64,000 bases of DNA from a virus (taxonomy: Duplodnaviria > Heunggongvirae > Uroviricota > Caudoviricetes), in IMG/VR virus record IMGVR_UViG_3300008262_003982. One strand, 5' to 3'. A model generated the notes under the pieces. That model was not told the origin of the DNA. It did not search any database and saw only the letters and a program-made list of their open reading frames with translations. The position numbers were made by a program, and so were the translations under genes. Shown here piece after piece: positions 20,191-55,924 of the stretch. Positions within the stretch are counted from its first letter, which is position 1. Every line of letters starts with the position of its first letter.

Positions 20191-20193
20191 TAA

Positions 20194-40967: not shown

Positions 40968-41762
40968 ATGAAACGTATTTTGACTCTCTCCGTTCTTGCC
41001 GCGGCTGTGCTGGCAACAGGTTGTACTCGTATCGAAACAGGTGAAGTTGGTGTACGTGTTGGCTTTGATAAACAAGTCCAGCAAGGTGAATTAATGCCTG
41101 GCTCGTTTAATCAAACCTTTTGGGGTGATGTTCTTACATTCCCAATCAAGGACGTTAATGTCAAACTGGAGGACATGACACCTGTTGCTAAAGATAACTC
41201 AACAATGAAAGACTTTGATGCAGTGGTTATCTATAACATCAATCAAGCACAGGTAGCCGAGTTGTATAGCCAAAAGAGTCAAGCATTCCATGCTCGGCAC
41301 AACGGCGACATCTACTTGATGTACAACTATATGGTTCAAACCACTCGTAATGCCATCTACAAAGAAGCCCGAAAGTACGAGGCACTAGACATGGCTGATA
41401 ATCGCCAAGTGATGGAACAAGCAATTAAAGAACAAATTCAAAAGAGTTTGGCTGATGAAAAACTTGATGGTAGTTTGGTTGTTGGTCAAGTGTTGATTCG
41501 GAATATTGTACCTGCAGATTCTGTGGTTGCGAGTGCAAATGAGTTGGTTCGTGCCAAGAATGAATTGAAACAAAAAGAAGTTGAAGTTAAGACTGCTAAG
41601 ATGGAAGCAGAACGTATGCAAGCATTGAGTAATCAAGGTGCTCAGTCAATTGCTTACATGCAAGCGCAGGCTATGATGAATATCTCAGAAGGTATCAAGA
41701 ACGGTCGTGTGCAAACAATTGTTGTTCCTGCAAACTTCAATGCGCTGATGATGCAAAAATGA
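40968..41762 (+). CDS. lipoprotein with SPFH/band-7 (prohibitin/stomatin-like) domain
   Basis: Signal peptide plus lipobox LATGC. VGQVLIRNIVPADSVVASANELVRAKNELKQ resembles the HflK/C-stomatin core. Confidence 0.5.
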   Translation: MKRILTLSVLAAAVLATGCTRIETGEVGVRVGFDKQVQQGELMPGSFNQTFWGDVLTFPIKDVNVKLEDMTPVAKDNSTMKDFDAVVIYNINQAQVAELYSQKSQAFHARHNGDIYLMYNYMVQTTRNAIYKEARKYEALDMADNRQVMEQAIKEQIQKSLADEKLDGSLVVGQVLIRNIVPADSVVASANELVRAKNELKQKEVEVKTAKMEAERMQALSNQGAQSIAYMQAQAMMNISEGIKNGRVQTIVVPANFNALMMQK

Positions 41763-42218: not shown

Positions 42219-42983
42219 ATGAAAAAGAAAAACTGGTTTGTGCCTTCGCACAACGAAATGATTGCATACAGTGCCTGTCTACATGTGATCCTGGTCTACT
42301 TTATCTTCAACAGTGAAGCATGGCAGTGGGCAATATGTCTGTTGGTCTACTATATCAAGATGGTAGTCGGAACTGTAACAGTTCATCGGCTGATCACCCA
42401 TCGTTCTTTTCAAGCACCAAAATGGTTTGAATATCTAGGAACATTGATTGCTATTCCTGGCACAACTTTACCAATGTTGTATTGGGTAGCAATACATCGA
42501 GCGCATCATAGACACTCTGACACAAAAGATGATCCGCACTCACCTGCGGTATACGGTTATCTAGCCGTGCAATTTAGACTCACACCTGCTACTCCAAAAT
42601 TAAGTTATGCTCCAGAGATTGTGAAATCCAAATTTCACATGCACATGTACTACAATCATTGGTTGTACACTATCTTGGTCGGGGTGGCAGTTTACATGAT
42701 AGATCCTTATGCAGTAGTGTATGCTTATTTGGTTCCGTCACTATTGTTGCAACATGCCAGTTCACTGACCAACTCTCTCACTCACAGTCCATCAGGATAT
42801 AGAAATTTTGACACACGTGATCAAAGTTCAAATAACCTGCTGGTAGGATATTTGACTGGTGGAGAGGGCTGGCACAACAATCATCACGCCGCTGCCGCAG
42901 ATCCACAGTTTGGCAAAAAATGGTGGGAATTTGATCCTGGATACCGCTTAATTCAATTGGTAAGAACTGACAAAGACCGTTGA
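42219..42983 (+). CDS. membrane fatty-acid (acyl-lipid/acyl-CoA delta-9-type) desaturase, paralogue 1
   Basis: Three His boxes: HRLITHRSF, HRAHHRHSD and GEGWHNNHHA. Multiple TM helices. Confidence 0.8.
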   Translation: MKKKNWFVPSHNEMIAYSACLHVILVYFIFNSEAWQWAICLLVYYIKMVVGTVTVHRLITHRSFQAPKWFEYLGTLIAIPGTTLPMLYWVAIHRAHHRHSDTKDDPHSPAVYGYLAVQFRLTPATPKLSYAPEIVKSKFHMHMYYNHWLYTILVGVAVYMIDPYAVVYAYLVPSLLLQHASSLTNSLTHSPSGYRNFDTRDQSSNNLLVGYLTGGEGWHNNHHAAAADPQFGKKWWEFDPGYRLIQLVRTDKDR

Positions 42984-43441: not shown

Positions 43442-43513
43442 GGGCCAATAGCTTAATGGTAAAGCAACCGACTCATAATCGGTCGAGTCTTGGTTCAATT
43501 CCAAGTTGGCCCA
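43442..43513 (+). tRNA. tRNA-Met (anticodon CAT)
   Basis: Acceptor GGGCCAA/TTGGCCC, anticodon loop cuCAUaa, T-loop TTCAATT, CCA encoded. Confidence 0.8.
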
Positions 43514-43521
43514 CCAAACAT

Positions 43522-43593
43522 CTGGCGTTCGTTCAACGGATAGGACATGATTCTTCTAAAGTCATTATAGAGGTTCGATTCCTCTACGCCGGA
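43522..43593 (+). tRNA. tRNA-Arg (TCT)
   Basis: Acceptor CTGGCGT/ACGCCGG, anticodon loop cuUCUaa, T-arm AGAGGTTCGATTCCTCT. Confidence 0.75.
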
Positions 43594-43614
43594 CCATGTA
43601 TTAAATAACGCAAA

Positions 43615-43697
43615 GCCAGAGTGGTGGAATGGTATACACAGCAGACTTAAAATCTGCCGCTTGCAAGGGCATACGGGTTCGAGTCCCGTCTCTGGTA
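43615..43697 (+). tRNA. tRNA-Leu (TAA), type II
   Basis: Acceptor GCCAGAG/CTCTGGT, anticodon loop cuUAAaa, long variable arm, T-arm ACGGGTTCGAGTCCCGT. Confidence 0.8.
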
Positions 43698-43706
43698 CCA
43701 AACATT

Positions 43707-44240
43707 ATGAACAAAAGTCCTACTCGCGGAACCTTTCACAGTCAATGCAGAATTGAAGATGTCATTGCGGAAGGAGGAGATCCTGCCACTGACGAAGATG
43801 TTCAACGAGCTTTAGATCTTGAACGCATGATCAACGAACATCAGGCTCAACGCGAAGCCGACGAACGGTGGCGAGAAAACAATCTTGAATATGATTTGCG
43901 TAGCACCAAGTGGGTTTGCGACAAAGCCAAGGCCAGCGATACCTACGCTCAAAACATCTACGCAGCCTTGTGCAATCAAGACTGGCAACGCAACGAAGTA
44001 TGGCCTTTGCTAAAGGGAGAGACCTACAGTTGTTCGTGGCGCTATGCCGGGGGTATTGTTGCCGACATGCGTGAACAAGGTGACTATATTGATTGGTACT
44101 GTTCGGGCATAGGCGATGGACTGGGCAATGGTGATGCTGACGGTGTTAAAAGATATGTACCCGAAGGACATGTCACAGAAGAAATCCAGGAAGACTTTTT
44201 TAAGTTGGGCTGGATCCCAGTAGATAGCGGGGATGAATAA
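43707..44240 (+). CDS. hypothetical protein
   Basis: The listed ORF starts inside tRNA-Leu. The first ATG after the tRNA is at 43707. 177 aa. Confidence 0.45.
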   Translation: MNKSPTRGTFHSQCRIEDVIAEGGDPATDEDVQRALDLERMINEHQAQREADERWRENNLEYDLRSTKWVCDKAKASDTYAQNIYAALCNQDWQRNEVWPLLKGETYSCSWRYAGGIVADMREQGDYIDWYCSGIGDGLGNGDADGVKRYVPEGHVTEEIQEDFFKLGWIPVDSGDE

Positions 44241-44390
44241 ATAGGTATGTGCTCAATCCCATAAAAAAACTACAAGAAAATCTAGCCCGAGACTTGGTCA
44301 GTCTGGAGGACACAGACTTGGTGTCGGAACAACAACTAGACAAAATTACTGATGCATACGCACAAGTGTATGACATCATCTCCAAAGCAG

Positions 44391-44419
44391 TTGACAAGCC
44401 CAAAGAATAAATATATACT
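44391..44419 (+). promoter_or_regulatory. promoter TTGACA-N17-TATACT driving tmRNA precursor
   Basis: Sequence motif immediately upstream of the acceptor piece. Confidence 0.5.
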
Positions 44420-44455
44420 GCGAGTTATTGCTGTATGAAGCCGAGAGAAAAGTGT

Positions 44456-44490
44456 TCTGGACGGGGGTGCGAATCCCCCCAGGTCCACCA
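44456..44490 (+). ncRNA. ssrA: tmRNA acceptor piece 3' end (T-arm plus 3' acceptor strand plus CCA)
   Basis: T-stem GGGGG/CCCCC with loop TGCGAAT. CAGGTCC pairs with GGGCCTG at 44706, with one G·U. Discriminator A and an encoded CCA. Confidence 0.7.
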
Positions 44491-44705
44491 TAAGGAAGTT
44501 TAATGATAGGTTATGTTTTATTTTTGTTATTTTGGTTAGTGTTTGGTGTATTTTATTTTACACGTGATACCACATTGGACGAAGAGAAAATAAAAAACTG
44601 TGAGTTATGGTAATATGGAAAATTTAGCAAAATTTTTATTAATTGTTTTTCCAATATTATGCTTGTTGTTAACAACATTAAGCGTAGATTAAGTTTCTTT
44701 ATGAT

Positions 44706-44866
44706 GGGCCTGACCTAGATTCGACAGGGCAAAGAGTAACAGAGTGGACAGCACGGTAGGCGATGACCGTAAATCAAGCAAAACTTTTATCTGCAAATGA
44801 TGAAAAATTCTTGATGGCCGCTTAAGGTCGTCTAGGGTAGGAAATACCTCGTAACAGAAACCACCA
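44706..44866 (+). ncRNA. ssrA: tmRNA coding piece (5' acceptor strand, D-like GAUUCGAC, tag ORF)
   Basis: GGGCCUGACCUAGAUUCGACAGGG matches the tmRNA 5' consensus GGGGCUGAUUCUGGAUUCGACGGG. Tag frame GCA AAT GAT GAA AAA TTC TTG ATG GCC GCT TAA gives ANDEKFLMAA. Confidence 0.7.
44793..44825 (+). other. tmRNA tag-peptide reading frame (A)NDEKFLMAA-stop
   Basis: Resume codon GCA. The ...AA-stop ending is typical of SsrA degradation tags. Confidence 0.65.
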
Positions 44867-44894
44867 AAATGGCTGCGAAAGTAGCCATTTTCTT
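44867..44894 (+). terminator. rho-independent terminator
   Basis: AAAATGGCT-GCGAAAGT-AGCCATTTT hairpin followed by TTTCTTT. Confidence 0.6.
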
Positions 44895-44921
44895 TGACAT
44901 TCTCAGTGTTTGTGCTATATA
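44893..44921 (+). promoter_or_regulatory. promoter TTGACA-N17-(T)ATATAAT for porin gene
   Basis: Sequence motif. Confidence 0.5.
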
Positions 44922-44971
44922 ATACTCTATGATCGACATTTGATCATTTCATTAACAAGGAAAAATTACTT

Positions 44972-45862
44972 ATGAAGAAAGTTCTAATTGCGTTGACCCT
45001 GGCAGTTGCTGGTGTTGCAAGCGCACAAGTTGGTATCTATGGTCGTGTTGGCACTTACCTTGACAACACCAAAACTGGTGCTTCCACCGTGCAAGGCATG
45101 GCCAATGACTTGAGTCACTTTGGCATTCGTGCTACTGAAAACTTAGGTGGCGGATTAACAGCTCGTGCCACATACGAGACCGGCATCCAAGCCAACAGCC
45201 CAGACACTGGTACTGACACTAGACTTGGCGATCGCCAAAGCACCGTGGGTATTGCTCACAAAATGGGTAGCGTTGATCTTGGTCGCAATGTTCACACTCA
45301 CTTCTTGGCCATCAGCGACAATGATCCATTTGGCACATTGATTGGTAGCTCAGCTGCCGACGTGCATAACCTGCGTGGTTTGCGTTTGAGCAATGCCGCT
45401 TTCACTTCTGTGAACTTTGGCAATGTCTCTGCTAACTTTGATCGTAGCACTGGTGCTGTTGGCACTGCCGCTGATCCTTATGCCGCATCCGTGATTGCCG
45501 CAGTTGGACCTGCTGTGTTGACTTATGCTCGTTACGAAGCTGGCGCAGAAACCAGTGACGTGTTGGCTGCTCGTGCTAAATTTGGTGCAACCACTGTGTT
45601 TGCCAGCGCAAGCGACAACAAAGGCGTTGCTGCCAACACCAACCGTGCTCAGTTGGTCGGCGTGGCACACAAACTTGGTGGACCAGTCACAGTGAAGGCC
45701 AGCTATGGTCGCATTGAAAATGGCATCAAGAGTTACAACGTAGGTGCTGAGTATGCTTTCAGCAAAAAGACCTATGCACAAGTTTTGTATCGTACAGTTG
45801 AGGGAACCTCAGCAGCCACTGATGTCAAACAAGTAGCAGGCGGGTTGGTCGTACAGTTCTAA
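44972..45862 (+). CDS. outer-membrane general porin (Gram-negative Porin_4-like beta-barrel)
   Basis: Signal peptide MKKVLIALTLAVAGVASA. AQVGIYGRVGTYLDN...ATENLGGGL matches the N-terminal strands of Neisseria/Burkholderia-type porins. C-terminal ...VVQF (terminal Phe). Confidence 0.7.
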   Translation: MKKVLIALTLAVAGVASAQVGIYGRVGTYLDNTKTGASTVQGMANDLSHFGIRATENLGGGLTARATYETGIQANSPDTGTDTRLGDRQSTVGIAHKMGSVDLGRNVHTHFLAISDNDPFGTLIGSSAADVHNLRGLRLSNAAFTSVNFGNVSANFDRSTGAVGTAADPYAASVIAAVGPAVLTYARYEAGAETSDVLAARAKFGATTVFASASDNKGVAANTNRAQLVGVAHKLGGPVTVKASYGRIENGIKSYNVGAEYAFSKKTYAQVLYRTVEGTSAATDVKQVAGGLVVQF

Positions 45863-45884
45863 AACAGAAGTAGTACAAACCAAA

Positions 45885-45913
45885 AAACCCGCCAAGTAGG
45901 CGGGTTTTTTTAT
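45885..45913 (+). terminator. rho-independent terminator
   Basis: AAACCCGCC-AAGTA-GGCGGGTTTTTTT. Confidence 0.8.
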
Positions 45914-45928
45914 GGCAGTAGACCAATA

Positions 45929-46070
45929 ATTGGATTGGTGCTATACTAGACACAAGTTAGAAAAACAGCGAAGTTTGTAAAGACCCTGCAACAAGGCGGG
46001 GCATTTACAAAACAAGTTGACCAGTAAAGCAGGAGATGCTATACTAGAGACTAGTTAGAAAACAAAGGCA
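45929..46070 (+). promoter_or_regulatory. tandem repeated promoter-like elements (...GGTGCTATACTAGACACAAGTTAGAAAAACA / TTGACC-N17-GATGCTATACTAGAGACTAGTTAGAAAACA)
   Basis: Two copies of about 30 nt starting GCTATACTAGA. Each is followed by a strong hairpin (46001..46038 and 46106..46140). Confidence 0.4.
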
Positions 46071-46380
46071 GTTGATCGAAACTACTTTGAAGTTCGTTAA
46101 AAATTTAATTTTGTATAGTGCCCCAGATTAAGTTCTGGGCACTATATGTAAACACATTAGGGTTACCTAGTCCGTTAGGGGTGAACAAAGGCTGATTCGA
46201 GCCGGATACCCATGAAGCAGGAGGGCCTAAGAGTAGCGCGAGACACCATCGAGCGTGAGGGATAAGGCTACACCAAACTCCAGGAAGGCGGCGGAACTAC
46301 TGGGCCTGTAATGAGGTCTTGATGCAAGTTGGTGATGCGTGTCAAGAACTTCCCTAATGTGTTTTCATATAGTGAACTAT

Positions 46381-46452
46381 GGAGCGTTCGTCTATCGGTT
46401 AGGACACAAGCCTTTCACGCCTGTAAGAGGGGTTCGATTCCCCTACGCTCTA
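46381..46452 (+). tRNA. tRNA-Glu (TTC)
   Basis: Acceptor GGAGCGT/ACGCTCT, anticodon loop cuUUCac (one mismatch in the anticodon stem), T-arm AGGGGTTCGATTCCCCT, CCA encoded. Confidence 0.6.
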
Positions 46453-46658
46453 CCAAATCCCGTTACTACTTTCGTTAAAGTAGCGTTTGATTAGCGATAG
46501 AGATCCGGTGGCAGAAGACCGTAAGCGTAAGGATGGAGACTACCCTTACAGACTCTGATAGGCAGAATCTCACTGCACACAGACTTTGAATAAATGAGAT
46601 GGACAGAGTAACTGCTCAATTAAGGGCTGGCGTGGAACCCAGTAGCTTATCCTAATTT

Positions 46659-46730
46659 GGTCTCAAGGTGTTCATGGACGCACACAGCACTGTCACTGCT
46701 GAGGAGGGGGATCGTTACCCCCTGGGACCG
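46659..46730 (+). tRNA. tRNA-Asp (GTC)
   Basis: Acceptor GGTCTCA/TGGGACC, anticodon stem CAGCA/TGCTG with loop cuGUCac. T-loop is the unusual ATCGTTA. CCA encoded. Confidence 0.6.
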
Positions 46731-46740
46731 CCAAGTTTAT

Positions 46741-46828
46741 GGACATGATGTGTCAATTACCTGAGGCTGGTATGAAACTTCGTAATAGCATACGAGGAAG
46801 AAGTGGGTTAGATTCCCATTGTTGTCCA
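46741..46828 (+). ncRNA. tRNA-like element (T-arm plus 3' acceptor plus CCA recognisable; non-canonical body)
   Basis: 3' end GTGGGTTAGATTCCCATTGTTGTCCACCA followed by the same AAGTTTATGG tail as tRNA-Asp. The 5' strand GGACATG pairs only 5 of 7. Confidence 0.3.
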
Positions 46829-46839
46829 CCAAGTTTATG

Positions 46840-46928
46840 GCGTCATAGGATGTAACGGAGTGTGGTTTGCTTCAACCTTGAATGATCATCAAGGTTTTCT
46901 TGCGTGGGTTCGAATCCCACATGATGCC
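46840..46928 (+). ncRNA. tRNA-like element (89 nt; acceptor GCGTCAT/ATGATGC and T-arm GTGGGTTCGAATCCCAC present; body contains 23-nt perfect palindrome)
   Basis: AACCTTGAATGATCATCAAGGTT palindrome at 46866..46888 where the anticodon arm should be. No clean D-arm. Confidence 0.3.
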
Positions 46929-47532
46929 TCAAGTTTGAAGCCACATCGCCTGGACACTTCCTCGCAAGAGCACTAGGTCCTGCAACCGTGGCTTCTCCCC
47001 GACGTTCCGCTTGGTTAGCGGATACTGTGACCCGCAGGATAAGAAGTGAGGTGACTCTCAAGGGTGGTAGTCTTCTTACCGAAAGGCCGTTAGCAACACG
47101 ATAGCGGTCCCTGTCGGGAAGCGGGTGGAAGGTGTGTGAGAATTGCGGGGCAACCCAAGAGATGATGCACTACAATTACCGCCGGGGGATGCAGAGCAAC
47201 TAATTTTCCTGATGCTGGGCAGGACAAGGCCCAGCAGTCCTATCCCAAGGATCACCTGAGCCAGAACTCAGGGCCGATGAGCATCGCAAGCCCTACCACG
47301 GGTGCCGATGGACGATAAATTGGGAAGCAGTAGTTAGCAGTGGGAGGATTTGATTTTCAAATCCGAACTTTTAGTTTTTATAGTCAAGCACCGATAAAGG
47401 TATCGTGTAAGGACGCTTACGCTATTCGGGTCCAACCGGCCGGGAACGGATCCTAATATAACTGCTATCGGCTATTGCACTCTTAGCGGAGGACGCATAA
47501 ATTGAGCATCTCTCGGTGCTTGACTATAGAAT

Positions 47533-48504
47533 CTATTCAATGTCAATTTGGCAAAAACTGTTTTTGCCGCCAAATCCAAAATTGGCCTTGAGTATGCGTT
47601 TGCCCGGAAACGGCACAGCATCTACGATGATCCTTGAATCTTTGACTATGAGATCACCAGCTAACACATTGGGTCTTAGGGTTTTTGCACGGTAATCGTC
47701 AAAACTCATGCACATTTCAATGGCGCCGCTGGCTGAGATACAGTGCCCTATGCGGCTTTTGTAGCTGACAATAGGTATGTCTTTGTGAACTAAAGAATTA
47801 AAAACATTGTACTCAAATTGATCTCCCACTGGAGTGCCTGTTGCATGTGCATTCCAAAAATCAATGGTGTCAAAATTGATGCCAGAAATATCTCTGGCCA
47901 ATTGGTGCGCATCACCTGGATTGGCTATGAGTGTGGGGTTGGTACGAAAGATATAATTGCTGATTGTGGCAAATGCACTCATGTTGAATTTTACACTTGG
48001 ATGTTTTATCAACATTGCAGCCATGCCTCTACCCATTCGAAATCCAGTACTGGTTGAGTCAAATGCTCTTCCTGAGGATTGATCCAATGCACCCATACTG
48101 GCAAATCGCCACATGTGAAGTTCGTCATCAACTAAATTATCAGCACAAAAAACAATCACTGGTAATTGGTGTTGCAAGCTCACCATGGATGCAGTGTACA
48201 AGGCATGCATGCTTCCACTGCATTCTGCTACCACATTCGTAACAAATCCGTTGAGATGCAATTTTGTTGCCACAAGACTGACCAAGGCGTCAATGGTACT
48301 GTTCCTAAGTTCAGTAGGACGTCCTCGTTTTTTATTGAGCTCAAAAAAGTCTCGGCTGGGTTTATTTGTTGGTATCAATCCTCCTTTGGAAGAAGTTACC
48401 ATTGGCCAGTGTGGCTGAACAATGTTTGCTAGACATGTGCTATCAACGAATTGTTCAATGTTCCAGTCGAGACTGTGGTGATAGGTTAAGATTTCAGTGA
48501 TCAT
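47533..48504 (-). CDS. beta-ketoacyl-(ACP) synthase-like condensing enzyme (KAS; thiolase fold)
   Basis: FWNAHATGTPVGD (the HGTGT-type His motif), C-terminal NFGFGGKNS (the GFGG motif), and a candidate active-site Cys in AECSGS. 323 aa, shorter than FabF. Confidence 0.65.
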   Translation of the reverse strand: MITEILTYHHSLDWNIEQFVDSTCLANIVQPHWPMVTSSKGGLIPTNKPSRDFFELNKKRGRPTELRNSTIDALVSLVATKLHLNGFVTNVVAECSGSMHALYTASMVSLQHQLPVIVFCADNLVDDELHMWRFASMGALDQSSGRAFDSTSTGFRMGRGMAAMLIKHPSVKFNMSAFATISNYIFRTNPTLIANPGDAHQLARDISGINFDTIDFWNAHATGTPVGDQFEYNVFNSLVHKDIPIVSYKSRIGHCISASGAIEMCMSFDDYRAKTLRPNVLAGDLIVKDSRIIVDAVPFPGKRILKANFGFGGKNSFCQIDIE

Positions 48505-48595
48505 GTGGGGTACTTATTTGCCCACTGTAACACGACTGCAGAAAACTGTTACAGACTATTTTGGATAGATAAACAACAAATTTATCCAAAACTGT

Positions 48596-48624
48596 TTGAC
48601 AACAAAAGACGTTTGTCTTACAAT
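48596..48624 (+). promoter_or_regulatory. promoter TTGACA-N17-TACAAT
   Basis: Sequence motif. Transcribes into the ORF-poor GC-rich region. Confidence 0.5.
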
Positions 48625-48625
48625 A

Positions 48626-49620
48626 GATACATAGGGCAGTTTATTGTCCTGTGCAGTATGGTTCGCCCAGCTGTACGAAGAATAACTGGGGTGACCCAGC
48701 CAAAGGATGTATGCCTACATAAGTCCGCCAGCAATGGTTCATGTAAACAAGCCTGCTCAGGTCCGTGAGGATCCGATCACTGATAAGACCGGTGGTTGTA
48801 ACAATGACGCTGGGAGTATAGGAAAGAGCTGTAACTTACCGGCCCGCAAGGGTAACCGGAGTTGCAGAAAAGTAACAGGTGGTGCTGACTTCTATACAAA
48901 ACCAGCCCAGTTAATTGGTATGAGAAAGGGTAGCGTATCGGTCCGAGGGGTTGCACCCAAGGGCTCGTATGCAGTTTGAGTGGTTGGTGGAGGTACGCGA
49001 AAGCCGAGACCCGACACTGATCGCAAAAGACGTCTGAGTAGTTCGCAAGACAAAAGGAACGTGGTGTGTTGTATTTTGTATTCCAAAAGAGTATGAAGCA
49101 ACTGAGTCAGCACATCGCAGTAGGTTGATATAGCTCATCGTAGAGCAATTCCCTGTTAAGGAATAGGCTGTGGCTTCAAAACCACTATCTAACATAAAAG
49201 CAAAGACTGACTCGGTCATGTGTGAAAAGTATCTAATGCTGTAGCCGCAAGGCAATACAGTCAGACGTAACTCGCAAGGTGAAATCTGTTTATACTGGAA
49301 GTTTCGTAACTGTTTAGCGACAGTGAATGGCTCTAAAGGTCAACGGGATAGATGGTGTAGAGTAGCATGTGATGACAAGACTACTGCCTGTCTTTAAAAA
49401 CGGCGATACTGGTAACAGACTGTGATACATAGCAATATGGTTGCAGTGGAAATCGGAAGAAAGCAGACTCGCAAGGTTTGTAATAATGTCCGAGGTGTTA
49501 CTGGGTTAGGATGTATTCTCAGTCCGCCACTTTATATACAAACGCACTCCGTACCCGTTGGTGGTTGCTCAATTCAATGAATTGTTCCCCAAGCATAGAG
49601 TGTGTTTCTATATAAATAAT
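48626..49620 (+). ncRNA. candidate large structured ncRNA (about 1 kb, GNRA tetraloop-rich)
   Basis: Sits downstream of the promoter at 48596. No credible ORF. Repeated cGCAAg/cGAAAg hairpins: CCCGCAAGGG, GCGAAAGC, GCCGCAAGGC and CTCGCAAGG, the last occurring twice. Confidence 0.4.
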
Positions 49621-49624
49621 TCAA

Positions 49625-49696
49625 TCGCGGGGTACGTCAGCGGTAGACCACCAGGCTCATAACCTGGGAGACGGAGGTTCGATTCCTTCCCCCGCA
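49625..49696 (+). tRNA. tRNA-fMet (initiator-like, CAT)
   Basis: C1·A72 mismatch (CGCGGGG/CCCCGCA), which is typical of bacterial initiators. Anticodon arm CCAGG-cuCAUaa-CCTGG. CCA encoded. Confidence 0.7.
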
Positions 49697-49735
49697 ACCA
49701 ATTCAGCCGAAAGGCTAAATAACTTTAACACAGTG

Positions 49736-49764
49736 GTTGACCTCAAAAGGTAAATACTGTACAA
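49736..49764 (+). promoter_or_regulatory. promoter TTGACC-N17-TACAAT
   Basis: Sequence motif. Confidence 0.5.
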
Positions 49765-49765
49765 T

Positions 49766-49946
49766 AGGACTTATGATGAAAACACAATATTGTTCACTGC
49801 TACCCAAGTTTGCCCAGACACCAGTTTGGTCACACGCCTATGGTCGCATGAATAGCATTCCAGGAGGCAGAGGGTCCTAAGTAGTATACAACCGTATCTT
49901 ACCCAAGGACCCAGGCGTAAAAACCCTGGGTTTTTTCATTTAGTGC
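49766..49946 (+). ncRNA. candidate small RNA (promoter-to-terminator unit, about 180 nt)
   Basis: Bounded by the promoter at 49736 and the terminator hairpin CCCAGG-CGTAAAAA-CCCTGGGTTTTTT at 49918..49946. Could alternatively encode a 35-aa peptide starting MMKTQYCS... Confidence 0.4.
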
Positions 49947-50118
49947 AACGGCAACGCGAGCCTGTATCACTCTAAACTACAAATGGGCGGCCTCGGGGAT
50001 GGCTTATGTTCTTGTACATAAAAAAATCCGAGCGTATTAAAACATTCTTTACAAACAGGCAGCCTAAGTAGTTTAGAATGTTTTAATACACACATTCGCA
50101 AGAGTGTGTTAAAATTAT

Positions 50119-50189
50119 GTCTCGGTGGTGTAATGGCAGCATGACGGTCTCCAAAACCGTTCGTGGGGGTTCGAGTCCCTCCCGGGATG
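50119..50189 (+). tRNA. tRNA-Trp (CCA)
   Basis: Anticodon arm ACGGT-cuCCAaa-ACCGT, T-arm GGGGGTTCGAGTCCCTC, acceptor GTCTCGG/CCGGGAT. Confidence 0.75.
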
Positions 50190-50198
50190 CCAAAATTT

Positions 50199-50270
50199 GG
50201 GCTGGTAGTGATAATGGGAGCACAGGGGCTTTGCAAGCCTTTAGTCGGGGTTCGATCCCCCGCCGGTCCA
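50199..50270 (+). tRNA. tRNA-Ala (TGC)
   Basis: Acceptor GGGCTGG/CCGGTCC, anticodon loop uuUGCaa, T-arm CGGGGTTCGATCCCCG. Confidence 0.75.
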
Positions 50271-50278
50271 CCAAATAT

Positions 50279-50368
50279 GGAGCAATTGATGCTATGGCGT
50301 GTGCATCGGCGGACTGTAAATCCGTCCCCTCGTGGTAAACATTCTTGGTTCGACTCCAAGTTGCTCCA
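50279..50368 (+). tRNA. tRNA-Tyr (GTA), type II
   Basis: Acceptor GGAGCAA/TTGCTCC, anticodon loop cuGUAaa, long variable arm, T-arm CTTGGTTCGACTCCAAG. Confidence 0.8.
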
Positions 50369-50411
50369 CCATATTTTTGTAGTAGGCTCGAGTGCCTACT
50401 AAGTAGATTAT

Positions 50412-50484
50412 TCCCTAGTAGCACAGCGGTAGTTGCACTTGACTGTTAATCAAGGTGTCCGTGGTTCGATCCCACGCTGGGGAG
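50412..50484 (+). tRNA. tRNA-Asn (GTT)
   Basis: Anticodon arm CTTGA-cuGUUaa-TCAAG, T-arm CGTGGTTCGATCCCACG. Confidence 0.8.
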
Positions 50485-50492
50485 CCAAGTCA

Positions 50493-50579
50493 GGAAGACG
50501 GGCAGGACGGTAATGCAGCAGATTGCTAATCTGTAGATTCTAGTAATAGGGTCATAGGGTTCGACTCCCTAGTCTTCCA
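50493..50579 (+). tRNA. tRNA-Ser (GCT), type II
   Basis: Acceptor GGAAGAC/GTCTTCC, anticodon loop uuGCUaa, long variable arm. Confidence 0.75.
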
Positions 50580-50588
50580 CCACAATTC

Positions 50589-50659
50589 GCCCTACTAGTA
50601 CAATGGTAGTACACTGGTTTTGTAATCCTGTGATGGCAGTTCGATTCTGTCGTGGGGCA
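50589..50659 (+). tRNA. tRNA-Thr (TGT) (anticodon stem with two mismatches)
   Basis: Acceptor GCCCTAC/GTGGGGC, D-arm GTAC/GTAC, loop uuUGUaa, T-arm GGCAGTTCGATTCTGTC. Confidence 0.55.
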
Positions 50660-50873
50660 CCAAGTTTTGAGAGTGTCAGCAAGAGAAAGACACGCTAGGA
50701 AGATTCTTCGAAGGTCAACCTAGTGTAAAGCACGGGCGGCGTGATTCCGTACACAACTAAGTAATCAATCTGTGTGTTAAGTATTCCAAGTGACGTATCA
50801 CCCTCCCGGCCGGCTTTATTACACGGGTCAATGGTAGCAATAACAGTGATGCTACTACTCTCAAATTCAATAC

Positions 50874-50948
50874 ACCACCTTAGCTCATTTGGATTAGAGC
50901 ACTGTGCTACGAACGCAGGGGCGGGGAGTTCGAATCTCTCAGGTGGTA
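50874..50948 (+). tRNA. tRNA-Arg (ACG)
   Basis: Acceptor ACCACCT/AGGTGGT, anticodon loop cuACGaa, T-arm GGGAGTTCGAATCTCTC. Confidence 0.75.
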
Positions 50949-50991
50949 CCAACACATAGCCATACTCTCCCTTGACGAGTTAGGTCCCTGG

Positions 50992-52116
50992 CTATTGTAT
51001 AACTTCTTGCGCTAAATTTTCTAGCACACCAAACACTGAGTTGATTGTGTGTTGTGTGATGTTGCGCAGTCGAATCAGCTGGCTTGTTCGAGACACAAAC
51101 TGTTCTCGTTGAGCAGGTGAGTGCTGTATTGTTTCTAGCATACTACATGTATCAGTCATTAACTGTTTTTGTGTTTTGGTAAGTTTTGCAACTGTTAGTT
51201 GTTTTTGTATAACTGCAATCAACTGCTGACGTTCGAGAGTGGTAAGCACTTCTGACTGTAGCCAAACAGGATAAGATAAAGGGATCACATTAAATGGCAG
51301 TCGACGGACATTGGCGTATTCAAACAGTTCAATGATATTTTGCAAATTTAAAAATTGCAACACTGCCGACAAATGTATCTTTGCTCCGGGCAATGCCTGT
51401 TGTAGTGCAACAATGTTTGATTGCACAACTGACCATTGTGCCGGATAGCGTAAAAATTCAAATGTTGGCCCAGTACCGTCTACACTAACCATCACATCAA
51501 GGTCAGATATTTTTTGTAACCGCTCAAGATGTTTTTTGGTTAGTTGAGTGGCATTGGTAATAATTCGTGTTTTAAGATTTTTTTCAATAACCGCATCGAG
51601 CAATTCAATATTGTGTTTGGTTACAAAAAATTCGCCGCCAATAAAACCTATTGATTTAAGGTCTGGCAACTGTTTAATAACTTCAAGTGCATGATCTTCG
51701 TGATTGATCACTATTGATTGTTTAATCCATCCAAGTTTGGCATATTCCTGACCTGATTTGGTACTATGAGAAGGATTGCACGACAAGCAACTGAGATTAC
51801 ATGCGTTGCCAGGGAAAATTTCCAAGTCAACAATTTTAGTTTTGGTTTCATGCTCAAACACTTTAATATACTTGTTTCGGATACTAGGCAAGTTATTATC
51901 TTCGTCTACTTTGCATGCCTTGCATCCATCTGGCAATGATTCTTTTGTAAGCAAATGTTGCTGAAGAGACGCTAGTTCAGATGATTGCAAATAATCATTA
52001 ATCGTTGCGTACTGCTTGATAGGTTTGTAATTGCAACAAGGCCTAACAGTTGGATTGAGATCTTTATCAGTATACATATGAATACTAACAAATGGTTTTG
52101 GACAATATTTGTTCAT
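50992..52116 (-). CDS. radical SAM protein (additional N-terminal Cys cluster; function unknown)
   Basis: CNLSCLSC (CxxxCxxC) plus an N-terminal CPKPF...RPCC. 374 aa. Confidence 0.6.
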   Translation of the reverse strand: MNKYCPKPFVSIHMYTDKDLNPTVRPCCNYKPIKQYATINDYLQSSELASLQQHLLTKESLPDGCKACKVDEDNNLPSIRNKYIKVFEHETKTKIVDLEIFPGNACNLSCLSCNPSHSTKSGQEYAKLGWIKQSIVINHEDHALEVIKQLPDLKSIGFIGGEFFVTKHNIELLDAVIEKNLKTRIITNATQLTKKHLERLQKISDLDVMVSVDGTGPTFEFLRYPAQWSVVQSNIVALQQALPGAKIHLSAVLQFLNLQNIIELFEYANVRRLPFNVIPLSYPVWLQSEVLTTLERQQLIAVIQKQLTVAKLTKTQKQLMTDTCSMLETIQHSPAQREQFVSRTSQLIRLRNITQHTINSVFGVLENLAQEVIQ

Positions 52117-52177
52117 TCAAATACTTATTTTAAAAAGGAGAGTCTGTCATGAATAGTGACAAGAGTGACAAGATACC

Positions 52178-52249
52178 GGGGGTGTGGTGAAACGGTATCA
52201 CAGCAGACTTTTAATCTGCCAATTTCGGGTTCGAATCCCGGCGCCCCTA
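52178..52249 (+). tRNA. tRNA-Lys (TTT)
   Basis: Anticodon arm GCAGA-cuUUUaa-TCTGC, T-arm TCGGGTTCGAATCCCGG. Confidence 0.8.
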
Positions 52250-52340
52250 CCATATAAAAACACATTCAACTAATGACACGGGTGGTAGCCGTGTATCTTA
52301 GTGGGCTAACGAACTACTACGCCTGAGTGTGTTCCTATAT

Positions 52341-52412
52341 GGTGACGTTAGTTTAGTGGCAAAACCGCGGGTTGTGATTCCGCTGTCATGAGTTCGATTC
52401 TCATACGACACC
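52341..52412 (+). tRNA. tRNA-His (GTG) with encoded G-1
   Basis: The extra 5' G pairs with discriminator C. Anticodon arm GCGGG-uuGUGau-TCCGC. D-stem GTTT/AAAC. Confidence 0.75.
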
Positions 52413-52420
52413 CCAGACAT

Positions 52421-52509
52421 GCCCCTATAGTTTAATGGTAAAACGGCGGATTTATATCCCGTAAGCAACAGATAATTGGTTCATCTGGGTTCGACTCCCG
52501 GTGGGGGTA
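52421..52509 (+). tRNA. type-II tRNA, anticodon uncertain (possibly TAT)
   Basis: Acceptor GCCCCTA/TGGGGGT and T-arm CTGGGTTCGACTCCCGG are good. The anticodon arm is irregular. Confidence 0.4.
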
Positions 52510-52517
52510 CCAAACAT

Positions 52518-52589
52518 GGATGTATAGCATAATGGTAGTGCGCCTCCTTCATACGGAGTCAAGTGGTAGTTCGACTCTACTTACATCCA
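52518..52589 (+). tRNA. tRNA with CAT anticodon (elongator Met or Ile2/lysidine type)
   Basis: Acceptor GGATGTA/TACATCC, loop uuCAUac, T-arm GGTAGTTCGACTCTACT. Confidence 0.7.
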
Positions 52590-52604
52590 CCAAATAGTTT
52601 TTGT

Positions 52605-52675
52605 TCGGGTATAGTGTAATGGTAACACTACAGACTTTGACTCTGTCATTCTAGGTTCGAGCCCTAGTACCCGTG
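52605..52675 (+). tRNA. tRNA-Gln (TTG)
   Basis: Anticodon arm ACAGA-cuUUGac-TCTGT, D-stem GTGT/ACAC, T-arm CTAGGTTCGAGCCCTAG. U1·U72 mismatch. Confidence 0.7.
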
Positions 52676-52685
52676 CCAAGTTTTT

Positions 52686-52752
52686 GCCGTGTAGCTCAGA
52701 GGAAGAGCAATCGCTTGATAAGCGATAGGTCGACATTTCGAAACAAGCGGCT
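52686..52752 (+). tRNA. tRNA-Ile (GAT)-like with aberrant T-arm (possible pseudogene)
   Basis: Acceptor 5' strand, D-arm GCTC/GAGC and anticodon arm ATCGC-uuGAUaa-GCGAT are canonical. No pairable T-stem. Confidence 0.35.
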
Positions 52753-52794
52753 GTATTCTTAGCTGGTAGTATTTTGACAGCAATAGGATTTGTA

Positions 52795-52950
52795 GTGATT
52801 GTGGCGGCGGCTGTTGCTGTCAACAACATCATAAGTCGTTACTGGAAGCCTGTAAAAATTTTCACAGCAGACAGTTGGAATCTGGGCCACGGCACAAGAT
52901 TTGCTGAACCCCATGAACTTGACAAAAGTCAAGAACCCAAAGTAAAATAA
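52795..52950 (+). CDS. possible small hydrophobic peptide (about 52 aa, GTG start)
   Basis: An AGGA SD lies 6 nt upstream of the GTG. Hydrophobic N-terminal segment VIVAAAVAVNNII. Lies between tRNAs. Confidence 0.2.
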   Translation: MIVAAAVAVNNIISRYWKPVKIFTADSWNLGHGTRFAEPHELDKSQEPKVK

Positions 52951-52956
52951 AATACA

Positions 52957-53030
52957 CGGAGTATAGCACAGCCTGGTAGTGCGCCTGGTTTGGGACCAGG
53001 AGGTCCGAGGTTCGAACCCTCGTACTCCGA
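52957..53030 (+). tRNA. tRNA-Pro (TGG)
   Basis: Acceptor CGGAGTA/TACTCCG, anticodon arm CCTGG-uuUGGga-CCAGG. Confidence 0.8.
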
Positions 53031-53039
53031 CCAATAGAT

Positions 53040-53112
53040 GTAGGTGTGTGCCGAATGGCTAGGCGCCGGATTGCAAATCCGTATAATGCAGGTTCGAGTC
53101 CTGTCACCTACT
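53040..53112 (+). tRNA. tRNA-Cys (GCA)
   Basis: Acceptor GTAGGTG/CACCTAC, loop uuGCAaa. Confidence 0.7.
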
Positions 53113-53309
53113 CCAAGTTTAGAAAAGATGTGTGAAAAACTCATTGACTATGGGCCCAACTGCTAGGGACCTTAACGTTATCCAGGTGCCGCTGGGATTA
53201 AGTTCCAGACTGCTAGTCACAGTCGAACCATGTGCCAGGAAGGATGTGAGCTACCCGAAAGGATGTTCAGTACCTTTAAACGCAAAGCAGTATCTTTTTT
53301 AATTTTTTA

Positions 53310-53397
53310 GGAAGTGTGGCAGAGTTGGTTGATTGCAGCAGTCTTGAAAACTGCCGGCTCCGAAAGGGGTCCGTGAGTTCGAATCTCACCACTTCCA
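53310..53397 (+). tRNA. tRNA-Ser (TGA), type II
   Basis: Acceptor GGAAGTG/CACTTCC, anticodon arm GCAGT-cuUGAaa-ACTGC, long variable arm. Confidence 0.8.
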
Positions 53398-53405
53398 CCA
53401 TATAC

Positions 53406-53477
53406 GGGTGATTAGCTCAGCGGTAGAGTCGCTGCCTTACACGCAGTTTGTCGGGAGTTCGATCCTCTCATCACCCA
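53406..53477 (+). tRNA. tRNA-Val (TAC)
   Basis: Acceptor GGGTGAT/ATCACCC, loop cuUACac. Confidence 0.7.
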
Positions 53478-53485
53478 CCATTCAT

Positions 53486-53558
<73 letters not shown>

Positions 53559-53562
53559 CCAG

Positions 53563-53766
53563 TTAGATTTTAGGTGTAAGATGTTTGATGCGTTGATTCA
53601 CCACATGCTCGACTGAATTGTCGTTGTAGGCCATAGCAGCCAGCAAGCCTGTTAGATATCCGCGCTCGTAGGCCAACTGTTGTTGTTTGGTCACAAACGT
53701 TTTGCCCAATGTTTCCATTGCAAGCAAACGCTCTATTTTTTTGATGGAGTCTTGTTTGGTTTGCAT
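53563..53766 (-). CDS. hypothetical small protein (67 aa)
   Basis: Minus-strand ATG at 53766. The longer listed ORF runs across a tRNA. Confidence 0.3.
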   Translation of the reverse strand: MQTKQDSIKKIERLLAMETLGKTFVTKQQQLAYERGYLTGLLAAMAYNDNSVEHVVNQRIKHLTPKI

Positions 53767-53777
53767 GATGTATTTAA

Positions 53778-53851
53778 GCCCCGGTGACGGAATTGGTATA
53801 CGTGTTGGTCTTAGAAGCCAAATTTTAGGAGTTCGAGTCTCCTCTGGGGCA
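53778..53851 (+). tRNA. tRNA with Leu anticodon TAG but short (type-I) variable loop
   Basis: 74 nt. Acceptor GCCCCGG/CTGGGGC, anticodon arm TTGGT-cuUAGaa-GCCAA, discriminator A. Paralogue of the tRNA at 55057. Confidence 0.6.
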
Positions 53852-53892
53852 CCAAATTTAATGTAGCTTGCACAGACTTTTAAATACACTGT

Positions 53893-54666
53893 ATGGCTAC
53901 AATTACTCAAATAGAACAGTACTGGGATCAACAACCTTGTAATATAAAGCATGGGTTGGCACCAGAAGGCACAGAAGAATTTTGGAACAACATCAATCGT
54001 CGTAGATGGTTTGTTGGGCCGCATTTGTGGCAGTTGGCCGACTTTGAAAACTGCAAGGGACGGCGGGTGCTAGAACTAGGATGCGGCATTGGATCTGATG
54101 CTGAACAATTTGTACGGCATGGTGCTGAATACGTTGGGATTGATCTTAGCAGTCGTAGCATAGAACTTTGTGAGCAGAGATTTACTGTTATGGGATTAGA
54201 TGCTGAATTCTATCACATGGACGCAGGCGACAGTCAGCGTGTTGCAGGGCTAGGACAATTTGATATGGTGTATGCTTGTGGTGTATTGCATCACTATCCC
54301 AATGTAGAACAAGTGGTCAGCAATGCTTACGCAAGTCTAGCATCTGATGGGGAGTTTCGTTTCCTAGTGTATGCTCGCAACAGTTGGAAATGGGCAATGA
54401 TTCAGTCTGGGCTGGACCAGTTTGAAGCGCAAGACAACTGCCCATATGCCAGAGTTTACAGTCAAGGAGAAATACAAAAACTGCTGGACGTACACTTTGA
54501 TATCAAAAGCATCAAGCAAGATTACTGTTTTATGTACAATGTAGAGCAGTACAAACAAGGAAATTATGTGTTGGAACCATGGTTTGCTGCCATGAGCGAT
54601 GCACAACGCCAGGCTGTCAATCAACAGCTAGGTTGGCATTTAAGCGTGATTGCCGCAAAGCAATAA
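53893..54666 (+). CDS. class I SAM-dependent methyltransferase
   Basis: Motif I VLELGCGIGSD. 257 aa. Confidence 0.6.
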   Translation: MATITQIEQYWDQQPCNIKHGLAPEGTEEFWNNINRRRWFVGPHLWQLADFENCKGRRVLELGCGIGSDAEQFVRHGAEYVGIDLSSRSIELCEQRFTVMGLDAEFYHMDAGDSQRVAGLGQFDMVYACGVLHHYPNVEQVVSNAYASLASDGEFRFLVYARNSWKWAMIQSGLDQFEAQDNCPYARVYSQGEIQKLLDVHFDIKSIKQDYCFMYNVEQYKQGNYVLEPWFAAMSDAQRQAVNQQLGWHLSVIAAKQ

Positions 54667-54685
54667 ATACAAAAAGGAGATTATT

Positions 54686-54985
54686 ATGGCTATAGTTGCT
54701 AAAACTGTGTTGGTGTATGCGTCTGTAGAAGATCGAGAAACAGCAAGAACTATTATCCCTTGGAGTAATTATTTACAAATTGTTGGAGACGGTGGGCATG
54801 ATGACTTTACTGTGGTTGGTACCGCAGGTCTCGACCCGTCAGAACTAGGTCCCACCCATTTAACTGTAACTCGAAAATGGGAAAACAAAAAAAATGCAGA
54901 AGACTTTGTTGAATGGATGACTGCACAACTTTCAACTTTTAGTGTTGTTCCTGTGTCATTTACTGTAGAAGATTATACAGAATAA
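54686..54985 (+). CDS. hypothetical protein
   Basis: ATG after an AAGGAG SD. 99 aa. Confidence 0.45.
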   Translation: MAIVAKTVLVYASVEDRETARTIIPWSNYLQIVGDGGHDDFTVVGTAGLDPSELGPTHLTVTRKWENKKNAEDFVEWMTAQLSTFSVVPVSFTVEDYTE

Positions 54986-55016
54986 CGCATGATCAGATTG
55001 TCTGACACAAGTTATA

Positions 55017-55050
55017 AAAACAGTAGGCCAGTCCTACTGTTTTTTTTTTT
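55017..55050 (+). terminator. rho-independent terminator
   Basis: ACAGTAGG-CCAGT-CCTACTGT followed by eleven T residues. Confidence 0.75.
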
Positions 55051-55056
55051 GCAAAT

Positions 55057-55130
55057 GCCCCGGTGACGGAACTGGAATACGTGTCTCTCTCAAAAGGAGA
55101 ATTCTGAGGGTTCGAATCCCTCCTGGGGTA
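55057..55130 (+). tRNA. tRNA with Leu anticodon CAA, type-I body (paralogue of 53778)
   Basis: The first 27 nt are almost identical to 53778. Anticodon arm TCTCT-cuCAAaa-GGAGA, discriminator A. Confidence 0.6.
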
Positions 55131-55156
55131 CCACTATCAATAAATATTTTTGAAAG

Positions 55157-55633: not shown

Positions 55634-55646
55634 TAAGTAACGGAAT

Positions 55647-55717
55647 GCAGGATTAGTTTAGGGGTAAAATAGAACCTTGCCAAGGTCCAGTCACCAGTTC
55701 GATTCTGGTATCCTGCT
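55647..55717 (+). tRNA. tRNA-Gly (GCC)
   Basis: Acceptor GCAGGAT/ATCCTGC, loop uuGCCaa, T-arm ACCAGTTCGATTCTGGT. Confidence 0.65.
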
Positions 55718-55724
55718 CCACTTA

Positions 55725-55795
55725 GCTCTCATAGTATAAAGGCATTACACTACATTGGTAATGTAGAAACACTGGATCGTTACCAGTTGGGAGCA
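55725..55795 (+). tRNA. tRNA-Thr (GGT)
   Basis: Anticodon arm CTACA-uuGGUaa-TGTAG. T-loop is the unusual ATCGTTA. Confidence 0.65.
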
Positions 55796-55803
55796 CCAAT
55801 TCT

Positions 55804-55875: not shown

Positions 55876-55924
55876 CCAATAAAAAACCTCAAACTCCGTC
55901 ATAGAAAAATACAATAGCAAAATG

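Follow-up and report, generated by a model that had tools for sequence, protein, structure and literature searches.

The DNA analysed here, a 64,000-nucleotide stretch of the IMG/VR virus record IMGVR_UViG_3300008262_003982 (hereafter the window), carries on its plus strand a porin gene that lies inside an island of tRNA genes, a permuted transfer-messenger RNA (tmRNA) and a GOLLD RNA (Table 1). In the open reading frame (ORF) listing of the window the gene codes for 296 amino acids. The N-terminus of the product (MKKVLIALTLAVAGVASA followed by QVGIYGRVGTYLDN) has, by inspection, the layout of a Sec signal peptide (n, h and c regions, cleavage at an AxA site), MKK leading into a hydrophobic core and then into ASA before Q, and appears as a low-confidence helix (residues 3-14) in the AlphaFold2 model described below. 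The protein closes with ...GGLVVQF, in which the alternating hydrophobic residues of LVVQF are of the beta-signal type. A hidden Markov model search gave a strong match to Pfam Porin_4 (PF13609; 90.2 bits, cutoff 27; E = 2.8e-25), in which residues 7-278 of the protein span model positions 4-307 of 310. The match to Porin_1 (PF00267; OmpF, OmpC, PhoE, Lc) was weak (29 bits, cutoff 23.7) and partial, its best stretch pairing residues 38-108 with model positions 21-91 of 337, which falls short of full-length membership. The NCBIfam equivalog porin_porB_Neis (NF040479) gave 35.6 bits against a cutoff of 480, with only residues 1-110 aligned, and no PHROG family matched. By these profile comparisons the window porin is a Porin_4 member belonging to no named bacterial equivalog. 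When a profile of the family was searched against the PDB, the matches included PorB (5e-18), BpsOmp38 (1e-11), Omp32 (2e-8) and PhoE (E = 1.7e-3), and the N-terminal strand aligns with PorB ADVTLYGTIKAGVETS. The gene thus encodes a general porin, as the initial annotation had proposed for exactly this ORF, and the Neisseria/Burkholderia-type (Porin_4) assignment, the signal peptide and the C-terminal Phe that it had named are all borne out; the best fold matches are porins rather than tail-fibre or beta-sandwich proteins, and a barrel is predicted.

AlphaFold2, run on a 38-sequence alignment of the family (A1), returned a monomer model with a predicted local distance difference test score (pLDDT) of 90.2 and a predicted template-modelling score (pTM) of 0.84. 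DSSP assigns 17 strand elements to this model, which are read as 16 strands since strand 2 bulges; the 16-strand topology is supported by the observation that insertions in bacterial relatives fall only in alternate, outward-facing segments. In a Foldseek search of the PDB, the top 50 matches were all trimeric general porins with 16 strands, the best being Omp32 of Delftia acidovorans (template-modelling (TM) score 0.80), and Omp32, BpsOmp38 and PorB ranged from 0.74 to 0.80. In known porins, loop L2 acts as the trimer latch and L3 as the constriction. Both are at full length in the model, L2 with 17 residues and L3, which joins strands 5 and 6, with 30 residues that include two short helices, equal in length to that of bacterial porins, and the remaining outer loops are short (L1, 2; L4, 10; L5, 2; L6, 6; L7, 4; and L8, 7 residues). 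When 60 family representatives were aligned with 45 of the nearest conventional-length porins, which were picked by length and score and of which one is confirmed on a bacterial chromosome, the median lengths were 299 and 341 amino acids, respectively, a deficit of about 40 residues. The conventional porins carry extra residues in L1 (2), L2 (1), L3 (1), L4 (3), L5 (5), L6 (3), L7 (6) and L8 (14), whereas each periplasmic turn differs by 0 or -1. The deficit therefore sits entirely in outward-facing segments, with L4-L8 trimmed and L2 and L3 at full length. Among close relatives, sequence entropy was modestly raised in the outer loops (0.28 against 0.16) and lowest in L3 (0.09), and R88, D102, R105, D118, D130, R135 and R138 were invariant in an 11-sequence alignment (A2), a pattern that in the model would fit the usual arginine cluster facing acidic L3 residues.

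The window porin is one of at least 294 distinct family members, whose median length is 295 amino acids and of which 293 of 294 end in Phe. A protein collection clustered at 90% holds 820 relatives, the best 120 of which are 85-96% identical and come from metagenome sources only; with clustering at 50%, some 80 groups of short porins (290-312 amino acids) precede the first ordinary porins of 330-380 amino acids, which start from about E~1e-12 to 1e-10. A motif-guided scan of IMG/VR gave 73 viral loci; the contigs that carry them are in many cases 100-524 kb long and in several cases 349-352 kb. A scan of unclassified metagenomes added about 60 full-length members, and over both scans several carrier contigs measure 349-359 kb. 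Two motif scans of GTDB (185,579 species of bacteria and archaea, one genome each), one of them based on a single protein, found no family member, the scans being keyed on conserved motifs such as LGDRQSTVG, so that bacterial members lacking those would escape. For the locus scans A2 was used, A1 being too diverse. All ORFs neighbouring porin loci were then clustered into a gene-sharing network, in which all 108 family loci of at least 6 kb fell into one component, with a T4 gp15-type tail-sheath stabiliser, both ribonucleotide reductase subunits, an ATP-dependent DNA ligase, and a MoxR ATPase with DUF2201 as recurrent neighbours, whereas loci with weak bacterial-type porin matches formed separate small components with cellular genes (TonB-dependent receptors, aldehyde dehydrogenase). 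One contig of the same gene-sharing group (L144, 9971-11656) carries, in place of the short porin, a conventional long-looped porin of 376 amino acids that shares 35% identity with the window porin across the N-terminal half, with an OmpA-C-like protein directly after it. Porins thus recur in this phage group, and the window gene appears, as far as sequence comparison can tell, to represent an old porin subfamily found only on contigs of T4-like jumbo phages (about 350 kb). We found no description of this family in the searched literature, and porins are not mentioned in Kavagutti et al. 2019.

The composition and evolutionary rate of the gene point in the same direction. Its GC content of 50.6% against 43.7% for the window was considered as a sign of recent transfer and rejected, since GC at the third codon position is normal (z = 0.45) and the excess lies at the second position (z = 2.3), where it reflects a protein rich in Ala, Gly and Thr. 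Codon usage correlates with that of the rest of the phage at 0.65, compared with 0.71±0.09 for other long ORFs. The median ratio of nonsynonymous to synonymous substitution rates (dN/dS) among 11 distinct close relatives was 0.12; by region it rose from 0.06 in L3 through 0.10 in strands and 0.13 in outer loops to 0.29 in the signal peptide, the highest value. Positive selection on the outer loops is thereby ruled out for this close group. The gene was not acquired from a host in recent times, and it evolves under strong purifying selection. It also differs from a classical auxiliary metabolic gene, which has a close host homologue: the motif scans of GTDB species genomes gave 0 relatives, identities to labelled bacterial porins are at most 32%, and codon usage is phage-like.

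The gene travels with its own expression signals. The sigma70-type promoter and the strong terminator claimed in the initial annotation are both present, the former agreeing with the consensus at 12 of 12 positions and the latter combining a hairpin of -19 kcal/mol (z = -5.0; 0 of 200 shuffles equal) with a U7 tract; this terminator was also picked up by the minus-strand scan, and its symmetry suggests that it may act in both directions. Promoters matching at least 10 of 12 positions precede the porin at 63 of 112 unique family loci (56%), compared with about 5% of random segments, and a hairpin (-10 kcal/mol or lower) with a T-run follows it at 71% of the 112 loci, compared with 3.3% of random segments. 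The ribosome-binding site AAAGGAAA is kept upstream in family members down to 47% identity. The neighbours, on the other hand, vary: locus L008 is syntenic with the window, in L005-L007 the porin follows TctC and 2-oxoglutarate (2OG)-oxygenase genes, and on a 160-kb contig (L003) it sits between PAAR-linked genes and a radical S-adenosylmethionine (SAM) gene. The porin is therefore an autonomous cassette, its promoter and terminator moving with the gene, and as a single accessory gene with its own promoter and terminator among variable neighbours it has the features of a moron. Classical morons are defined in temperate phages, and the term is applied here by analogy. The tmRNA lies directly upstream but outside the porin transcript and has a near-consensus promoter of its own at 44391; the hairpin and T-run between the two is likely a tmRNA terminator that insulates the units from each other, and co-transcription of tmRNA and porin in the window was ruled out on the basis of this element and the separate promoter. 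The window contains 12 promoters matching at least 11 of 12 positions, all on the plus strand and 0 on the minus strand, most of them in the 37-59 kb island 5' of tRNA blocks, the tmRNA, the porin and accessory genes. With a consensus sigma70 promoter, a strong ribosome-binding site and a terminator, the porin can probably be read by host RNA polymerase from the start of infection, and it probably belongs to a class transcribed early by the sigma70 polymerase of the host. Between the porin terminator and tRNA-Glu lie two promoter-like units, at 45919 and 46017 (TAGACC/TTGACC-17-TGCTATACT), each followed by the same AGTTAGAAAA and sharing the TGCTATA form with the porin promoter; these could be tandem tRNA promoters or small-RNA starts.

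The window also encodes a T4-type family B DNA polymerase and exonuclease, a QueE-like enzyme and other phage families. Its DNA polymerase is 51% identical to that of Sinorhizobium phage Phosso, 47% to that of Agrobacterium phage Atu_ph07 and 42% to those of Rak2/GAP32-like phages of about 350 kb, and the window is part of the genome of a T4-like jumbo phage. This phage is uncultured, since the region has no DNA or protein match among deposited phage genomes (porin tblastn, 0 in 50,697); together with the lack of a PHROG family, this agrees with the earlier remark that a porin in such an island is uncommon. The island itself, also as first described, holds 28 tRNA genes, a high number for a phage, all on the plus strand; three of them are tRNA-Met(CAT) and one is tRNA-Ile(TAT). 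In about 30 of 80 family loci the porin is preceded by a permuted tmRNA at most 10 kb away on the same strand, often at a gap of only 35-60 nucleotides, and the order tmRNA then porin is seen with porins 39-92% identical (L005-L009, L014, L015, L030, L036, L040, L041, L044, L045, L048, L051, L059, L072, L076, L077 and others), so that the tmRNA-porin pairing is a handy marker for this uncultured phage group. Upstream of this module are two ORFs without a Pfam or NCBIfam match. The window further contains genes for an SPFH/Band 7 protein, a fatty-acid desaturase, a beta-ketoacyl synthase (KAS)-like protein, a nucleotide-sugar epimerase and a glycosyltransferase, an envelope and lipid gene cluster that suggests that the host envelope is remodelled more widely. 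Other genes, of metabolic type like that of the QueE-like enzyme, encode rubrerythrin, a dioxygenase of the TauD family, a radical-SAM protein and a SAM methyltransferase. In L005, L006 and L007, whose porins are 92% identical to that of the window, two TctC-family periplasmic solute-binding genes (3383-4321 and 6842-7741 in L005) lie with TauD and 2OG-Fe(II) oxygenase genes just 5' of the tmRNA-porin module. L003 carries in a row genes for a ClpX-like ATPase, ribosomal protein S21, HSP20 and ClpS (17893-20468), with a PAAR-motif protein upstream of its porin.

Table 1. Features of the window in and around the porin gene (positions in nucleotides of the window; aa, amino acids; nt, nucleotides; pI, isoelectric point)
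Feature	Position	Strand	Details
Porin coding sequence	44972..45862	+	296 aa with signal peptide; mature protein about 278 aa, pI 9.0, no Cys
Signal-peptide coding part (aa 1-18, MKKVLIALTLAVAGVASA)	44972..45025	+	Predicted cleavage between ASA and Q; by inspection, no dedicated predictor
Loop L3 coding region (aa 108-137, HTHFLAISDNDPFGTLIGSSAADVHNLRGL)	45293..45382	+	Predicted pore-constriction loop; motifs NDPFG and DVHNLRG
Sigma70-type promoter, reading 1	44894..44923	+	TTGACA 44894-44899, 18 nt, TATAAT 44918-44923; 12/12 consensus
Sigma70-type promoter, reading 2	44913-44921 (-10)	+	16-nt spacer, extended -10 TGcTATATA
Ribosome-binding site AAGGA	44957..44961	+	10 nt 5' of ATG, read from sequence
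Intrinsic terminator	45880..45911	+	A-tract, CCCGCC stem, AAGUA loop, GGCGGG stem, U7
Hairpin and T-run between tmRNA and porin -35 box	44866..44891	+	AAAATGGCTGCGAAAGTAGCCATTTTCTTT, directly followed by TTGACA
Promoter-like units	45919-46060	+	Two units
Promoters matching at least 11/12	18913, 37279, 37640, 37893, 42980, 43405, 44391, 44894, 48596, 52919, 56559, 58619	+	
tRNA genes	43442-55878	+	28 genes
Permuted (two-piece) tmRNA	44387..44868	+	Tag ANDEKFLMAA; ARAGORN; Rfam tmRNA_permuted 115 bits, alpha_tmRNA 57 bits
GOLLD RNA, full length (RF02032)	49061-49525	+	204 bits, cutoff 150; tRNA-like element inside, 49124-49194
ORF of about 177-203 aa	43629-44240	+	Listed start overlaps tRNA-Leu; homologues in 13 other family loci
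ORF of 53 aa	44249-44410	+	Next after the ORF of about 177-203 aa, upstream of tmRNA-porin module
SPFH/Band 7 protein	40968-41762		
Fatty-acid desaturase	42219-42983		
KAS-like protein	47533-48504	-	
Nucleotide-sugar epimerase and glycosyltransferase genes	15724-16686 and 23443-24312		
QueE-like radical-SAM enzyme	27008-27853		
Radical-SAM protein	50992-52116	-	
SAM methyltransferase	53893-54666		
Rubrerythrin	55981-56418		
TauD-family dioxygenase	57749-58618		

The initial annotation had also taken the porin as a pointer to a beta-proteobacterial-type host. The porin itself is of the Burkholderiales type: all 224 plasmid and chromid records among its labelled relatives are Burkholderiales (Ralstonia, Cupriavidus, Burkholderia, Paraburkholderia and Variovorax included), the labelled bacterial porins nearest to it are 28-32% identical and again all Burkholderiales, and its best sequence and fold matches among solved structures are betaproteobacterial. 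The plasmid and chromid collection that supplied these organism-level nearest neighbours is biased, and the same collection yields many alphaproteobacterial matches for another query. The conventional porin and OmpA-like protein of L144 likewise have mostly Burkholderiales as nearest relatives. The phage and its tmRNA, however, carry alphaproteobacterial signs, as cultured relatives of the phage infect Rhizobiaceae (Alphaproteobacteria) and alpha_tmRNA is the best fit to the tmRNA among the tmRNA models of the Rfam tRNA clan. A 318-kb Atu_ph07-like freshwater phage with S21 has been predicted to infect LD12 (Okazaki et al., bioRxiv 10.1101/655167). S21 is also encoded on L003 in this family, and it has been reported in the Atu_ph07-like Lake Biwa phage LBVG_1. 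TctC (in L005) and TauD (in the window) gave no host signal, with identities of 19-33% over several classes, and P0204, tried as a possible host porin, lies on a 2.25-Mb chromosome by ComP_DUS pilin genes and proved to be a distant conventional porin. The search for the closest bacterial homologue thus found Burkholderiales-type porins but none that is close, and without a close homologue the gene identifies a Burkholderiales-type porin rather than a host. The host is a Gram-negative proteobacterium, with candidates split between Burkholderiales such as Limnohabitans or Polynucleobacter, the type of the porin, and the alphaproteobacterium LD12; of the proposed beta-proteobacterial host, the porin type stands, and the low identities and the relationships of phage and tmRNA speak against the remainder.

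The fold of the window porin is that of Omp32 (Delftia/Comamonas acidovorans, 1e54 and 2fgq), BpsOmp38 (Burkholderia pseudomallei, 8jto and 8wv0) and PorB (Neisseria, 4aui and 3wi4), with which it also has in common an N-terminal (A/D)-V-T/G-(I/L)-YG strand, GxRQS before strand 4, the length of L3 and the C-terminal Phe, whereas it differs from them in being phage-encoded, about 20-22% identical and 30-60 residues shorter, in outer loops L4-L8. Phage-borne general porins are known from the temperate lambdoid phage PA-2 (Lc) and from an E. coli defective prophage (the related nmpC). Like the window porin, these have their own expression signals, and they alter the porin complement of the host, as is known for Lc; Lc, on the other hand, is an OmpC-like Porin_1 protein, near-identical in type to host porins and expressed in lysogens of a temperate phage. 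The window gene departs from the Lc type in its T4-like jumbo context, the lack of a tblastn match and the 28-32% identity to the nearest labelled bacteria, a comparison made without a systematic search of the window for integrase or lysogeny genes. Porin genes of other families have been described on viral contigs. Freshwater amoC-phages of 155-338 kb carry oprP genes for phosphate-selective porins that were read as supplying host nutrients (bioRxiv 10.64898/2026.06.18.733297), but OprP is of a different porin family and was described by the authors as closely resembling homologues in the predicted hosts, and so looks like a recent capture. Marine viral contigs carry, beside glnK-amtB, the gene of an OmpL-like porin in a predicted promoter and terminator context, which was interpreted as serving auxiliary uptake (Gazitua et al. 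2020, PMC8115048); it is of an unrelated family, in a three-gene block from Flavobacteriales on few contigs. Three porins of 'uncultured Caudovirales phage' in UniProt/BFVD (A0A6J5L4P1, A0A6J5LP82 and A0A6J5LFR4; 420, 285 and 104 amino acids) have general-porin folds like that of the window porin but are 17-25% identical and outside its family, and no study of them was found in the searched literature. What is new here is that the family is restricted to phages, old and diverse, that its genes form autonomous cassettes, that surface loops specifically have been trimmed, and that a permuted tmRNA is recurrently linked to the porin.

With somewhat better than even chances, in our judgement, the gene provides a functional general diffusion porin with 16 strands, of the same kind as Omp32, PorB and OmpF, that is made early, exposes a minimal surface and boosts nutrient influx. 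The porin would be made early by host RNA polymerase, together with the phage tRNAs and the tmRNA of the same promoter class; its precursor would be exported by Sec and cleaved after ASA, and the C-terminal Phe signal would lead to insertion into the host outer membrane by the beta-barrel assembly machinery (BAM). As the L2 latch loop is kept at full length, the protein would probably trimerise. The added water-filled channels would allow more inflow of small hydrophilic nutrients, feeding the replication of a genome of about 350 kb in a nutrient-poor host, and with 2-10 residues each L4-L8 would offer almost no grip to other phages or grazers. The analysis shows that the protein is a porin by sequence and fold, that its gene lies in a phage, how the family is distributed, and that the gene has conserved expression signals, trimmed loops and a history of purifying selection; we infer that the porin is made early, inserts into the membrane and trimerises, and that selection acts through nutrient uptake. 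The TctC solute-binding genes by the module in related phages lend circumstantial support to uptake, as do the membrane and lipid genes in the same island to the mechanism, and oprP on the freshwater amoC-phages offers a precedent for an uptake role. Several points weigh against nutrient supply through a surface-minimal pore. Nothing directly separates nutrient uptake from receptor remodelling; the short loops could simply reflect economy; and with an outer-loop dN/dS of 0.13 and no positive selection, a 'stealth' role is neither supported nor countered. The 45 "bacterial-type" porins behind the loop comparison were chosen by length and score, only one being confirmed as chromosomal, the structural model is a monomer, an open pore, L3 inside the barrel and a trimer interface being putative, and the phage restriction rests on motif scans and on contigs chosen by those motifs.

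The main rival to nutrient influx is receptor remodelling or superinfection exclusion, whereby a loop-less porin would replace or dilute the long-looped host porins that serve as receptors for this or competing phages, so that fewer virions adsorb to infected cells and, later, to their debris. Superinfection exclusion and altered permeability, the two functions raised in the initial annotation, are each compatible with the data. The trimming of epitope-bearing surface loops while the functional L2 and L3 are kept, the strong early-type promoter and the precedent of the PA-2 Lc porin, which alters OmpC-dependent adsorption, would all suit such a role, but stable host porins outlast a single lytic cycle and could be diluted only by growth or over a very long infection, the outer loops (dN/dS 0.13) are free of diversifying selection, and no repressor of host porins was identified; on balance we regard this explanation as unlikely, though a serious competitor. 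The prospects are poorer still for an Omp32-like channel selective for organic anions (di- and tricarboxylates) that would work with phage TctC in a two-step uptake, to which we give a small chance of being correct. This would be consistent with the best structural match being the anion-selective Omp32, its malate complex included, with the conserved R88, R105, R135 and R138 in or beside strands 4-6, with a pI of 9.0 for the mature protein and with two TctC genes at most 7 kb from the module in L005-L007; on the other hand, L3 keeps the conserved acidic D116, D118 and D130, a trait of general porins, the window and the majority of family loci lack TctC, and identity to Omp32 is only about 21%.

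That an excess of barrel protein might instead perturb the outer membrane or free vesicles, for virion release or for shedding competitors, is very improbable: the desaturase, KAS-like enzyme and SPFH protein of the window would be in keeping with it, but the promoter is of the early host-polymerase type rather than late, and the greatest conservation is in the pore loop L3, which argues for selection on the channel and not on bulk. A recently captured passenger gene without a phage role, a bacterial contaminant or a chimeric assembly deserves hardly any credence and is largely refuted. The GC content of the porin exceeds that of the window and porins are typically cellular genes, yet this excess is at codon position 2 and not at GC3, more than 130 independent contigs carry the porin among phage genes, and the gene combines strong purifying selection with a conserved promoter and terminator and has no close bacterial homologue.

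Porins gate entry into Gram-negative cells and are prime phage receptors, and the phage-borne porins known so far are temperate conversion genes or recent copies of host genes. The jumbo-phage family differs from these, being both abundant (hundreds of 90%-identity clusters) and divergent (to about 30% identity). In its broadest form, which we put forward only tentatively and at rather less than even odds, our interpretation is that jumbo phages of aquatic Gram-negatives have long kept and diversified a porin lineage of their own, with channel and trimer loops intact and surface loops stripped, which would be installed in the outer membrane of the host at the start of infection and open the cell to nutrients without adding receptor surface. 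If this is true, outer-membrane permeability would join the host functions seized by lytic phages in nutrient-poor waters and would be a trait under direct viral control. The family would then give a testable handle on how very large phages provision their replication, and structural studies and engineering would gain from it a porin scaffold that nature has minimised and that can still form trimers.

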